Notes: generated by a model not told the origin, from the letters alone. A stretch of 64,000 nucleotides of DNA from a virus (IMGVR_UViG_3300022555_000030:1-64000), one strand, 5' to 3'. Positions 8,740-13,242 are shown, numbered from the stretch's first letter. Made by a program: numbers and translations.

Positions 8740-11700
8740 ATGCCCTCACCATATGATAATAGATTAGCGCAAAGCCATGCTGGTGTTACTGGTTTAATTA
8801 TTAATCCTGACAATCCTGGTATGCATTCACATACTAAATATCAAGGTATTCATCCTATTAACCAAATACATGAAGGGCTATTAAATCCTCAAGAGCAAGG
8901 TATAGAACAACAACTTATTCAGCAGCCACAACAACAGCAAGTTGAATCCCAAATTTCTCAAGAAAACAAACAAATTATTAATAAATTAAATGAATTACCG
9001 TTAAGTGATGCTAATAAAGCAAATTTGATATTTAAATTAAATAATAAAGAAGGATTTATAGATAATTTAGTTACTTTAGGGTATATAGATTTTAAAATTG
9101 GAAAAGCAATTGGATTTTCTTCGGATGAATTACAAGACGCTAGCAAGTATTTAACATCTGCTGTAGAAAAGATTTCTGAGTATTTTGGGATAGATACGGA
9201 CTCGAATACAGATAGCATATTAACACCAAATCCAAAACAATCAGAAAATGAATATGCTAAGCATATTGCTAAATATTTATCTGGTAAAACAATAGACCAG
9301 AAGAAACAATATTTTGAATATAAATTTGGTGCTCATAAGGCTGGGCAAAGTTATTTAGCAACATCGGAAAATGAAGAATTATTATCATTAATAGAAAATC
9401 ATCTTAAAGTATTAAATAAAAAATTTGATGAAATAGAACCTAGTAGTGCAATAGCTGTTCTAATGAATCTTAATTATAATACTCAAAAGAAGACATTACA
9501 GAATATAGGGTTTAGTGATGACGAAGTAGAAGATATGATGGGCACTGCAGATAAAAATATTACTGGTTATAGTACTCTTCATCATTATTCATTAGATAAA
9601 GTATTTGATTTTCTCCATTCAAAAGCTAATTCAGAGCCAATAATTAAAAAAGATGAAGAAAATATATTAGATAAAAGTAAATTAGATAATATATTAAATG
9701 GGCTTAAAATCCCAGTATTTAATTATAATACACAAGATGACTTTATAGGTAATTTATCCAGTAAATTATATAATATGAATGAGAATATCCTTTCGCAAAT
9801 AGGAGTCCCTAGGGATAAATTAATGGATACTTGGAACCATTATAGTAAATTAAGAGCTGCTGTAGAAAAATTTGTAAATGGTGGCGAAAAGAAAACTTTT
9901 GAATTTCCTGAAGTAAATACAGGCAAAATAGATTATGCAATGTTCAATAAAGAAGAAGACTTTAAAGATTTCCCATACGCAACAGCGCTTAATATAGCAA
10001 CACAAATACATCATGAAAAAAATGCTGAACAACAAGCAATAATGCTCACAAATTTAGGCATAGGATTAGACAACGATTATTTTAATGCATTAATAAGTAA
10101 TAAATCATTAATGTATGATGTAATACTTAAAAAATTAAAAGAAAATCAACAAGTATCTTTACAAGAAAATAAATTAGTAGAAAAAGTACAAAATAAAAAA
10201 ACATTATTAAGCCCTGAAGAGATTGCGAATACAATAGAAGAATATAATGATAAATTTAATAATAGTTCTATTACTGGAAAAGAATTTAGTAAAAAATTAA
10301 TTGAATTAGGATTAAAGACTAAACAAGTACAAAACTTTACTTTTTATAATAAAAAAACATATCCTAAAAGTTATTTTATGAAATGGGCAAATAAAATACA
10401 TGCCCAAAATAAAGAAACTGCAACAGAATTAGAAATTGTAACAGAACCAGAACCAAAATATGTAAAGAATATTACAAATAAATATCCTAATATTAAATCA
10501 TTTATTCCTGACGGTTTATTATCTGAATATAAACAAGAATATGATTCTGATATAGGGTCTTCTGCTGGTTATACATTAAAAGACCATACTAATATGGTAT
10601 TGGGGCAATTTAATAAATATTATAAAGGACAATTACTCCCAGGGAACTTTAATTCAAATGCTTTTGAAGCATTATTAGCCCTTCATGATATAGGAAAGCC
10701 AAAAGCAATATCAGAGGGGAATGAAAAATCACAACATGAGAATACAGTTGCTTTAATGAATAATACTTTACAAGGAATGGGATTAAAACAAAGTGAAATT
10801 AACGTATGTAATGCATTAATCCATGCTGATGTTTTGGGAGAATATCTCCAAAATGATAAGTCTCTTGAAGAAACTGTTAAAAGACTAGAAGAAAGCGCTA
10901 AATTTGCTGGAATGAATCCAATAGATTTCTTTGATCTTGAATTATTATTATTTAAAGTTGATGCTGGAGCATATACAGAAGATGCTGGTGGCAAAAAATC
11001 ATTAGATCATTTATTTAAATTTGGGGAAGATGGTATAGGATTAGAAGCATCTGTACAATCTAAAATAGATAAAGTGCATGAAGGAATATTATTTGCTGGT
11101 GAACCATTACCTGATAGTGATACAGAATTACCCACGGCTGATGAAGCGTGGGGCAAATATACAATGCGAGAGCTAGAGGATAAAATTATTGGGAAATTAT
11201 TTGCAGATGAAACAGAATTTGATGATTGGCTTAGTACATCAGATAGGAAAGAAAAATTCTTAGAAAGGTATGCAAAAAAACTTAAAGAATATAATGAACT
11301 TAATAATATCCCTGCAATTAAACCAAAATCTATATCTACACCAATTAATGGGGTAAGAAGTAAAGCTAAGGAATTAATGAAGGAATTTTCTACACAAACT
11401 AGAAGTTTTATAGATTTTGCGGTATCTAAGAATATACCAAAAGAAGTCGCTACTGGAATGCTAAATGAATCAGACTCTTTTGAAGAACTAGAATTAAAAC
11501 TTACTGGATATTTACAGAATAATATTAAAGAAGAACCAAAAAAAATAAATATTAAAGATTCTGATTTTAATGATTGGTATTATAGTATAAATGGAAAAAA
11601 TAGCCCAGACCTTATAGGAACATTATTTGCTAATCATGAAGAATATAAGAAGTGGATAACTTCGGAATCAACGACGGAAGCTAAAAGAATATTCGAAAAA

Positions 11701-13242
11701 GCAGTACAAAAATATAATGGGATTAATACTGATATTAATTTGGATCCTTCCAACTTTATTAAAGTTGGTTCACAAAAAGGCTCTAATGCGGGTGGGTTAT
11801 ATAAAGATAATACAACAGGAAAACAGTATTATGTTAAACATTTCGATAATAATCATAGACTTGCTGATAATGAAAATATAGCAAATGAATTATATAAACT
11901 TGCAGGTGTTCCTGTTGCAAATACCTCTATAGGGAAAGTTAATAATAAAGCAAGCATTATATCAGAAATGATTGACGGAGTTAACCCATCTATTAATACT
12001 ATAAAATCTAATAAGGATATAATAAATAATTTTGTAATTGATGCTTGGCTCGCAAATTGGGATGTAGCTGGGGCAGATTATGATAATTTATTATTAACTC
12101 CAAATAATGCTCTTTATAGAATAGATAATGGTGGAAGTCTTTTATATCGTGCCCAAGGCGGAAGTAAAAATTTTACGGATGAAGTAACTGAACTTGAGTC
12201 ATTAAGAAATCCTGATATAAATCCTACAGCTGCAAATATTTTTTCTGATATTACTTATAATATAATAAAACCAGGGCTTGATAGATTAAAGAAAATAAAT
12301 AATCAGGATATACATGATATAGTAAATGGATCCACTGCTTTTAATCAAATAGAAAAAAATAAATTAATTAATACATTAATAAAAAGAAAGGCGGATATTT
12401 TAAATAAAATAAAAGATGATTCATATTTCTCATCGCATGATATAGAATTATATGAAGAATTTACATCCAAAAAGAATTTGGTATCTAATATTATACAAAA
12501 TAATTTTAAAAATAATGAAAAAATAAATAAATTAATTAATAGTACTAATACAATGCTTAATGATGTTGAAAGTATTTTAAATTCTAATACTACTAACGCA
12601 ATAAATCAAAGAAAATATGCAATTACAACACTATTAAATGATGTCGGTTTAGCTGAATATAAAGATACTATATATGAACATATATATTATTGGCAAAGTG
12701 GGTCTCCTGTTAATGGACAAGTATTTATACGTTCTGCAATGGCCCAATTGAAAGGGCAGTCTCATATCCAATATGGAATAGATCATTCCTTTTATATATA
12801 TGATAGAAAAATGAGCGCAAAAGAATTTAATTTAGCATATAAAAATGGCAGAGAATGTGCAGAGGCTCTTATCCCATTTATTATGATATCCCAAAAAAGA
12901 GCAGAAATGGATAAACAAAATGGTAACAAATTAAGATTATATAGAGGTATATCAGATGGTATGGAGGAAAAGCCAGCAACTAAAATAAAAAAAGCTATTG
13001 CTAAAAATAATGATCCATCTATGCTATATTCTATCCCTAATAATGGCGAAGCTGGGTTTTCTACAAGTTTAGGTATTGCACAATCATTTGGGAAAGTAAT
13101 ATTTACGAAAGAGTTTGAACCAGAGGAAATATTATTTAATTTTAATTTATTTTCAAATGAGTATTTGGGGGAGACAGAATATATAGTTGATAGTGAATCA
13201 ACAAGATTCTTAAAAAGAAGTGAAATATTATTAATGGATTAA
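8740..13242 (+). CDS. 1500-aa multidomain protein: HD domain, HipA/PI3-PI4-kinase-like domain, C-terminal ADP-ribosyltransferase-like domain
   Basis: TLKDHT...LALHDIGKP (HD); GSNAGGLYKD...YYVK...ENIANELY...DAWLANWD...DN...RIDNGG (kinase); LYRG...FSTS...ETEYIV (R-S-E ART). Confidence 0.7.
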   Translation: MPSPYDNRLAQSHAGVTGLIINPDNPGMHSHTKYQGIHPINQIHEGLLNPQEQGIEQQLIQQPQQQQVESQISQENKQIINKLNELPLSDANKANLIFKLNNKEGFIDNLVTLGYIDFKIGKAIGFSSDELQDASKYLTSAVEKISEYFGIDTDSNTDSILTPNPKQSENEYAKHIAKYLSGKTIDQKKQYFEYKFGAHKAGQSYLATSENEELLSLIENHLKVLNKKFDEIEPSSAIAVLMNLNYNTQKKTLQNIGFSDDEVEDMMGTADKNITGYSTLHHYSLDKVFDFLHSKANSEPIIKKDEENILDKSKLDNILNGLKIPVFNYNTQDDFIGNLSSKLYNMNENILSQIGVPRDKLMDTWNHYSKLRAAVEKFVNGGEKKTFEFPEVNTGKIDYAMFNKEEDFKDFPYATALNIATQIHHEKNAEQQAIMLTNLGIGLDNDYFNALISNKSLMYDVILKKLKENQQVSLQENKLVEKVQNKKTLLSPEEIANTIEEYNDKFNNSSITGKEFSKKLIELGLKTKQVQNFTFYNKKTYPKSYFMKWANKIHAQNKETATELEIVTEPEPKYVKNITNKYPNIKSFIPDGLLSEYKQEYDSDIGSSAGYTLKDHTNMVLGQFNKYYKGQLLPGNFNSNAFEALLALHDIGKPKAISEGNEKSQHENTVALMNNTLQGMGLKQSEINVCNALIHADVLGEYLQNDKSLEETVKRLEESAKFAGMNPIDFFDLELLLFKVDAGAYTEDAGGKKSLDHLFKFGEDGIGLEASVQSKIDKVHEGILFAGEPLPDSDTELPTADEAWGKYTMRELEDKIIGKLFADETEFDDWLSTSDRKEKFLERYAKKLKEYNELNNIPAIKPKSISTPINGVRSKAKELMKEFSTQTRSFIDFAVSKNIPKEVATGMLNESDSFEELELKLTGYLQNNIKEEPKKINIKDSDFNDWYYSINGKNSPDLIGTLFANHEEYKKWITSESTTEAKRIFEKAVQKYNGINTDINLDPSNFIKVGSQKGSNAGGLYKDNTTGKQYYVKHFDNNHRLADNENIANELYKLAGVPVANTSIGKVNNKASIISEMIDGVNPSINTIKSNKDIINNFVIDAWLANWDVAGADYDNLLLTPNNALYRIDNGGSLLYRAQGGSKNFTDEVTELESLRNPDINPTAANIFSDITYNIIKPGLDRLKKINNQDIHDIVNGSTAFNQIEKNKLINTLIKRKADILNKIKDDSYFSSHDIELYEEFTSKKNLVSNIIQNNFKNNEKINKLINSTNTMLNDVESILNSNTTNAINQRKYAITTLLNDVGLAEYKDTIYEHIYYWQSGSPVNGQVFIRSAMAQLKGQSHIQYGIDHSFYIYDRKMSAKEFNLAYKNGRECAEALIPFIMISQKRAEMDKQNGNKLRLYRGISDGMEEKPATKIKKAIAKNNDPSMLYSIPNNGEAGFSTSLGIAQSFGKVIFTKEFEPEEILFNFNLFSNEYLGETEYIVDSESTRFLKRSEILLMD

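Follow-up and report, generated by a model that had tools for sequence, protein, structure and literature searches.

The question raised by the viral contig IMGVR_UViG_3300022555_000030 (positions 1-64000; these 64,000 nucleotides (nt) are called the window below) is what its phage does with a single protein of 1500 amino acids (aa), here named P0001, which is encoded directly behind the gene for the prohead protease. A preliminary description had read P0001 as a chain of three enzymes, consisting of an HD phosphohydrolase, a HipA/PI3K-like kinase and an ADP-ribosyltransferase (ART), and had suggested that this head-operon protein is a payload packaged in the virion for host takeover or anti-defence. 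The open reading frame (ORF) does follow the protease gene immediately and stays open although stop codons are frequent at its 28% G+C (the window, a phage contig, has about 29%), while its ATG lies 2 nt past the TAA of the protease gene, a gap which suggests translational coupling of P0001 to the protease. We consider it probable, albeit far from certain, that P0001 is a polyvalent effector with three enzymes behind an orphan N-terminal carrier, which is loaded into the capsid, delivered with the DNA and acts on the host. Among the proteins retrieved, this chain of three enzymes has so far been seen only in this phage.

The kinase module, which had been placed at about 11750-12400 and was recovered there, has no match in Pfam or PHROG, and was recognised by its motifs and predicted structure. 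The conserved elements are a glycine-rich loop (G1014-G1018), K1033, E1045, D1101-AWLAN-W-D1108, D1115-N1116 and D1129-x-G-G, with G1014, G1018, K1033, E1045, D1101, N1106, D1108, N1116 and D1129 invariant or nearly so in alignments of 27 and 40 sequences. Judged by these motifs the catalytic machinery is predicted to be intact, with ATP-binding and phosphotransfer residues present, and D1108 is likely to be the catalytic base, N1116 the catalytic-loop asparagine and D1129 the magnesium-binding aspartate, roles which follow the motif layout of HipA and PI4KII. A model of aa 990-1500, covering kinase and ART (predicted local distance difference test score (pLDDT) 87.3), had H. pylori CtkA as its best match in VIA-align (3akj_A, Z 15.6, 207 residues, root mean square deviation (rmsd) 3.6), with PI4KII-alpha (Z 13.6), CotH (12.9), MavQ (12.7) and HipA (12.2) next over model residues ~2-246, and Fam20, actin-fragmin kinase, HipT, RIO and typical protein kinases among the further matches. 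Foldseek agrees on CtkA (E 1.2e-4), and with these proteins leading the structural matches the label 'HipA/PI3K-like' was an apt one.

The kinase has the 'D....N.D ... DN ... D.G' catalytic layout of the CtkA/PI4KII/HipA/CotH group, but no sequence relationship to that group is detectable. A 40-sequence kinase profile found no PDB chain at E <= 1, and HipA_C (PF07804) does not match P0001 and matches two out of 35 IMG/VR relatives (at 1e-5), a sample chosen by kinase motif only. The kinase is predicted to have a bilobal, HipA-type fold, yet is no member of the HipA family by sequence, and in the model aa 1000-1225 represent a distinct family within the protein-kinase-like fold, in the CtkA/PI4KII/HipA/CotH group. 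At E <= 0.001 an exhaustive search brought up 5190 representative proteins, and nearly all of these match via the kinase module. The module is also repeated within single proteins, since more than one copy is present in 36 of the 134 top kinase-bearing representatives that were retrieved, with up to five copies (P0016, of 3416 aa, is among the representatives with repeated copies).

For the C-terminal end of P0001 an ART of the R-S-E type had been proposed at about 12930-13240, and this is where we find the core of the domain (12928-13239, from aa 1397), preceded by a conserved helical N-terminal part which starts at 12637 and contains the invariant W1318. W1318, R1402, E1478 and E1480 are invariant in an alignment of 16 ART sequences, and the STS position (S1441-T1442-S1443) is serine or threonine. 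In R-S-E transferases the arginine belongs to strand 1 and S-T-S to strand 2, and E-x-E precedes the strand after the ARTT loop. In the model of aa 990-1500, R1402 is located on strand 410-415 (model numbering), the STS motif at the end of strand 449-452 and followed by a helix (455-461), and E1478-x-E1480 at the start of strand 491-494, which is the arrangement known for R-S-E transferases. Whole P0001 matches the Pfam family DRAT (PF07357) with E 6e-4, as do four of the 16 ART relatives (best 8.9e-6), and of the nearest ESM Atlas clusters that have a name, most are ART families (ADPrib_exo_Tox, DRAT and Mod_ADP_RT; score 0.90, taken as a lead only). A search of PDB sequences with the ART profile gave nothing significant, with ExoS at E about 1. 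On motifs and model together, aa 1300-1500 are likely to be a C-terminal R-S-ExE ART, which by sequence is closest to DRAT, at a sub-threshold score.

With regard to the HD module, proposed at about 10570-11020, alignments of 12 and 23 sequences delimit a conserved module at that place (Table 1), in which there is no variation at H616, H649-D650, K653 and D741, little or none at D697, and hardly any at Q665-H666. An AlphaFold (AF2) model made with the 23-sequence alignment (pLDDT 91.6) matched 3wfo_A best in VIA-align (Z 12.9, rmsd 3.3, 172 aa), and, with few exceptions, the listed matches are HD-superfamily proteins or phosphodiesterases of the HD fold, with YhaM, GppA/PPX, SAMHD1, PhnZ, Cas3-HD, cyclic-nucleotide phosphodiesterases and SidE-type phosphodiesterases among the lower ones; the same families lead the Foldseek list, with weak E-values (0.03). 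Pfam HD (PF01966) has no match in P0001 and weak matches in 8 of 12 homologous modules (best E 0.0019), and the HD profile reached E 0.3 against the HD part of 3wfo in a search of PDB sequences. The HD domain of this class II CCA/A-adding enzyme has the HDIGKP motif in common with the P0001 module, whereas the latter is a unit of ~200 aa without the nucleotidyltransferase head. The model thus predicts that aa 593-785 are an HD-superfamily phosphohydrolase module with an all-helical HD fold and a putative metal-binding H..HD..D site. As the preliminary description had anticipated, the HD module and the kinase both model onto the expected folds, and the family-invariant residues of all three domains are present in P0001.

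A word-indexed search with the HD part identified 11 long proteins sharing the ~200-aa module, usually at one end, and the exhaustive search also returned the module on its own, in proteins of 206-254 aa. Of the 164 proteins retrieved, P0001 apart, not one has the HD module in the same chain as the kinase or these ARTs, and the HD module appears to be a separate mobile module that was added to P0001. In three of the 11 long proteins (P0011, P0012 and P0015, 1684-1805 aa) the same HD module is C-terminal and accompanied by a DarT-type ART (PF14487).

The kinase and ART, on the other hand, are frequent companions. An ART of either of two families is present in 50 of the 134 representatives, 29 being DRAT-like and 18-20 ADPrib_exo_Tox-like, although the query contained the DRAT-like domain and so inflates the first count, leaving the exoenzyme-type count unaffected. 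The ART comes after the last kinase domain in 47 proteins (median gap 93 or 167 residues), and is followed by few residues when DRAT-like (median 2, maximum 25) and by a median of 21 and up to 998 residues when of the exoenzyme type. Similarly, Pfam recognises an ART in 10 of the 35 IMG/VR proteins, the cultured Pseudomonas phage Dolphis (gp117) and Morganella phage Mecenats66 (ORF50) have the same kinase together with a Pfam-significant ADPrib_exo_Tox domain, and the kinase-ART pair alone makes up proteins of about 505-515 aa (P0062, L004). Four IMG/VR contigs encoding the same kinase and a DRAT-like ART have no other gene in common with the window, from which we infer that kinase and ART, in this order, form a conserved cassette which travels among unrelated phages. 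The neighbours of the kinase gene in one related locus (L009) had no match in cultured phages, and no bench study of this kinase family, including the kinase-ART pair, was found in the literature. In 21 of 46 related loci (L001-L083) there is also an ORF of 125-230 aa directly downstream of the kinase gene; these ORFs can be assigned to five or more unrelated families, and a window homologue was found for none of them.

Because the order of the two domains is fixed, their spacing short, and two unrelated ART families are swapped behind the same kinase, one could suppose that kinase and ART are an obligate functional couple, either with a common host target or with the product of each as substrate of the other, and with the HD module as a third step; we regard this as a tentative and rather doubtful extension. 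The HD module, being of the phosphodiesterase type, would in such a scheme trim an ADP-ribose or phosphate adduct. Legionella SidE effectors pair an ART with an HD-like phosphodiesterase, and with this precedent and the presence of the HD module alongside DarT-type ARTs elsewhere, a three-step modification is conceivable, if speculative.

Returning to the polyvalent effector that we favour, P0001 would be made late, together with the prohead protease, be loaded into the capsid, and be delivered into the host together with the DNA. Once there, the kinase would phosphorylate and the ART would ADP-ribosylate host proteins, for host takeover or counter-defence, and the HD module would hydrolyse a nucleotide-type phosphoester, either in a signalling nucleotide (a defence signal) or at an RNA 3' end, possibly a damaged one. 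Proteins that a phage delivers along with its DNA are at work before phage gene expression, and this makes them prime candidates for disarming host defences. The modification of host proteins is suggested by the precedents of T4 Alt and the T7 kinase, the latter disarming defences and so giving a precedent for broad counter-defence by phosphorylation (PMC13645617). Like the ART of P0001, T4 Alt is an R-S-E type phage ART, and it is made late, packaged in the capsid, processed by a protease and delivered with the DNA (summarised in PMC5512222 and PMC9503650). Unlike P0001, where the ART stands behind a kinase and an HD module, Alt is a single enzyme of the ADPrib_exo_Tox/VIP2 type, and in contrast to this precedent neither a capsid-targeting sequence nor a cleavage site was identified in P0001.

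In joining disparate effector enzymes in one chain, P0001 is comparable to the polyvalent proteins (Iyer, Burroughs, Anand, de Souza and Aravind 2017, PMC5512222), in which the ART is the commonest protein-modifying domain, kinases also occur, and injection is predicted. The likeness extends to the genome, as the P0001 gene lies by the protease gene and the window contains portal, terminase, capsid and protease genes: what characterises a polyvalent protein, i.e. two or more disparate effector domains, a portal-terminase phage, and a late or virion context, is also found for P0001. The polyvalent kinase clade is said to be without the C-terminal lobe, with the catalytic His-Asp kept, and is found mainly in elements of the Verrucomicrobia-Chlamydia group and the Bacteroidetes (PMC5512222), whereas the P0001 kinase has the D-AWLAN-W-D, DN and DxGG motifs and a predicted CtkA/PI4KII-like fold. 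We came across no reference to an HD module in the same paper, and P0001 has no LPD domain. Phage polyvalent proteins and head-packaged ARTs are thus a known theme, and what is new in P0001 is that an HD module is added, that no MuF anchor is present, and that the gene stands directly after one for an intein-bearing prohead protease.

The case for carriage of P0001 in the virion starts from its gene, which abuts that of the prohead protease, and is otherwise drawn from its relatives. A Phage_Mu_F domain is present in 15 of the 35 kinase-bearing IMG/VR proteins, the two ORFs upstream of the kinase gene include about 15 portal and 9 large-terminase genes over 45 loci, one BFVD match to the model of kinase and ART is annotated as an HK97-type portal protein, and in Gordonia phage Forza, a further carrier of the cassette (gp78), the gene for the kinase comes right after the one for the portal. 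For polyvalent proteins, and for ARTs in contexts of this kind, the literature predicts packaging and injection, and T4 Alt is the precedent that has been tested (PMC5512222, PMC9503650). These observations are consistent with packaging of P0001, and the proposed virion payload has indirect support from homologous kinase modules, a part of which belong to MuF head proteins beside portal genes, but P0001 itself has no MuF domain. A search of the literature found no virion proteomics for the cultured relatives.

Several further points weigh against the packaged effector. Pfam recognises no MuF (PF04233), portal or other known virion-anchoring domain in P0001, and as the N-terminal ~590 aa have no relatives, the protein is tied to the capsid by gene position alone. 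The motif hh-K-[SAG], a candidate protease site that is common in the products of adjacent genes, is present a single time in P0001, where it falls within the HD fold, and was for this reason dropped as a sign of processing. On the enzymatic side, the DRAT match of the ART domain by itself (E 3.5e-5, 23.5 bits) is under the cut-off of 25, hhalign of the ART family versus exoenzyme-type ARTs aligned the ExE strand alone (probability 17.5%), and the structure-search lists for the model of kinase and ART are filled by kinases, and so give no reading for the ART fold. Finally, a HipA-family kinase encoded between portal and major capsid protein (MCP) genes was read by Benler et al. as a late superinfection-immunity factor (PMC8008677).

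That last proposal is the starting point for the alternative that P0001 is a late intracellular effector, which is not packaged and acts in the producing cell by blocking superinfection, remodelling the envelope or shutting down the host late. The kinase in question, from the 'Gratiaviridae' (Benler et al. 2021), is like P0001 a HipA-like kinase among head genes; in a comparison by description only, it is accompanied by an ATPase and a glycosyltransferase, and fusion to an ART or HD domain is not reported (PMC8008677). While the missing MuF or portal domain of P0001 is what would be expected of an effector that stays in the cell, the MuF fusions of the relatives and the portal-named BFVD match indicate a physical place in the head, and ARTs in such a genomic context are generally read as packaged (PMC9503650). 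We consider an unpackaged effector unlikely, though likelier than the two alternatives that follow.

The gene order might also suggest an assembly or structural factor, resembling an internal core or scaffold protein, whose enzymes would modify capsid, scaffold or portal during head maturation, as the P0001 gene comes directly after the prohead protease gene and before the genes for two lysine-rich, repeat-bearing proteins with the appearance of scaffold or internal proteins. The kinase-ART cassette, however, moves between unrelated phages and also exists free-standing, which fits a portable effector better, and leaves a role in assembly decidedly improbable. Least probable of all, and in our view hardly to be expected, is an antibacterial toxin of the MuF type, released with particles or by lysis and with lysogens protected by an immunity protein, since, although MuF-fused toxin domains including ARTs are known (PMC5512222, PMC5576092) and a small ORF directly downstream is common in related loci, P0001 lacks the MuF domain, those small ORFs fall into unrelated families without a window homologue, the window has a lytic-type replication set (DNA polymerase, primase, ribonucleotide reductase (RNR) and UvsX-like recombinase), and no integrase was noticed among the window ORFs scanned.

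The kinase of P0001 belongs to a very large family that has no Pfam model and no sequence link to solved structures, and that is tied to head genes and to ARTs, and P0001 shows that carriage of the cassette is possible without a MuF anchor, directly behind a head protease. With three active sites that are predicted to be intact it is also a compact case, open to ordinary expression, toxicity and in vitro assays, and the substrates of the kinase and the ART would reveal whether phosphorylation and ADP-ribosylation act jointly in host takeover.

The layout of P0001 is given in Table 1 together with the neighbouring features. No chance-exceeding match to solved structures was obtained by sequence for whole P0001, and no close relative of the whole protein was found in IMG/VR. 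The N-terminal region (aa 1-592) has no match in Pfam, PHROG or the ESM Atlas and no homologue among proteins of 825-2625 aa; a BLAST self-comparison gave no significant internal repeat, and a faint 'L..hG(h)(s/p)' helix-turn motif recurs every ~85-100 aa. This region could be a capsid-targeting or carrier part. The linker between HD module and kinase contains an element of ~40 aa twice, one copy after the HD module (aa 815-855, 11182-11304) and the other immediately before the kinase (aa 957-996, 11608-11727), with a local alignment score of 63, compared to 23.7 +/- 4.5 for shuffled sequences, none of which (0/500) reached 63. The duplicate may be a remnant of module junctions; the element was not found ahead of the kinase in relatives, which have no conserved header peptide before the kinase and only linkers rich in proline, alanine and lysine.

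Table 1. Organisation of P0001 and adjoining features (coordinates of the window)
Feature	Position	Strand	Basis or remark
Major capsid gene	3584-4945	-	Divergent from the plus-strand unit starting at 6143
S78 prohead protease with mini-intein and DUF5661 C-terminal extension	6143..8737	+	Pfam, PHROG
Shine-Dalgarno-like AGAGGA	8728..8733	+	Inside the 3' end of the protease gene, 7 nt ahead of the P0001 ATG
Whole ORF, P0001, 1500 aa	8740..13242	+	Open for 1500 codons
N-terminal orphan region, aa 1-592	8740..10515	+	Without family or homologue
Predicted HD module, aa 593-785	10516..11094	+	Alignment, model, structure search
Linker, aa 786-999	11095..11736	+	Element of ~40 aa twice
Predicted atypical kinase-like domain, aa 1000-1225	11737..12414	+	Motifs, model, structure search
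Partly disordered helical linker, aa 1226-1299	12415..12636	+	pLDDT <50 at model residues 244-256
Likely ART domain, aa 1300-1500	12637..13239	+	Alignment, Pfam DRAT, model

With regard to the genomic surroundings, the term 'head-operon protein' holds for the adjacency to the prohead protease gene and not for the head genes as a whole. These are scattered instead of making up a single classical operon: the gene for the major capsid protein is divergent, and those for portal and terminase are ~35 kb away, in the right half of the window, where they are encoded on the minus strand with the genes for DNA polymerase, primase, UvsX-like recombinase and ribonucleotide reductase. The protease itself was identified by Pfam (Peptidase_S78 E 5e-9, Intein_splicing E 6e-11, DUF5661 E 3e-19) and by the PHROG label of head maturation protease. 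Its intein is located at about 6833-7258, where matches to Intein_splicing, PT-HINT and Vint (aa ~241-372) split the S78 domain in two, and with an intein inside the prohead protease, protein splicing would be needed for head maturation.

Downstream of P0001 there are two plus-strand genes (13307-14272 and 14339-15907) for lysine-rich proteins without a known family. The first, the gene next after P0001, encodes 321 aa and has its own promoter-like site; in the promoter and terminator scan of the region, the frequency of such sites was not above that in shuffled sequence. The second encodes a 522-aa protein with a near-duplicate 'AEENR.RVAT.KNKPLPGYPTFEE' element and four hh-K-[SA] motifs, and from these features may be a scaffold or internal head protein. 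The sole strong plus-strand hairpin of the region that resembles an intrinsic terminator (17186-17213, a 10-bp stem with a T-run) follows the ORF at 16750-17163, and may end a transcription unit running from the protease gene to this ORF.

Finally, the intein in the protease may have a counterpart elsewhere in the window. The RNR large subunit (51743-54637, minus strand) has two separated RNR-family matches, and between them one region matching HNH endonuclease families (aa ~518-634) and another (aa ~407-499) matching a family that also matches the Hint part of the protease, which suggests a second intein, with a homing endonuclease.

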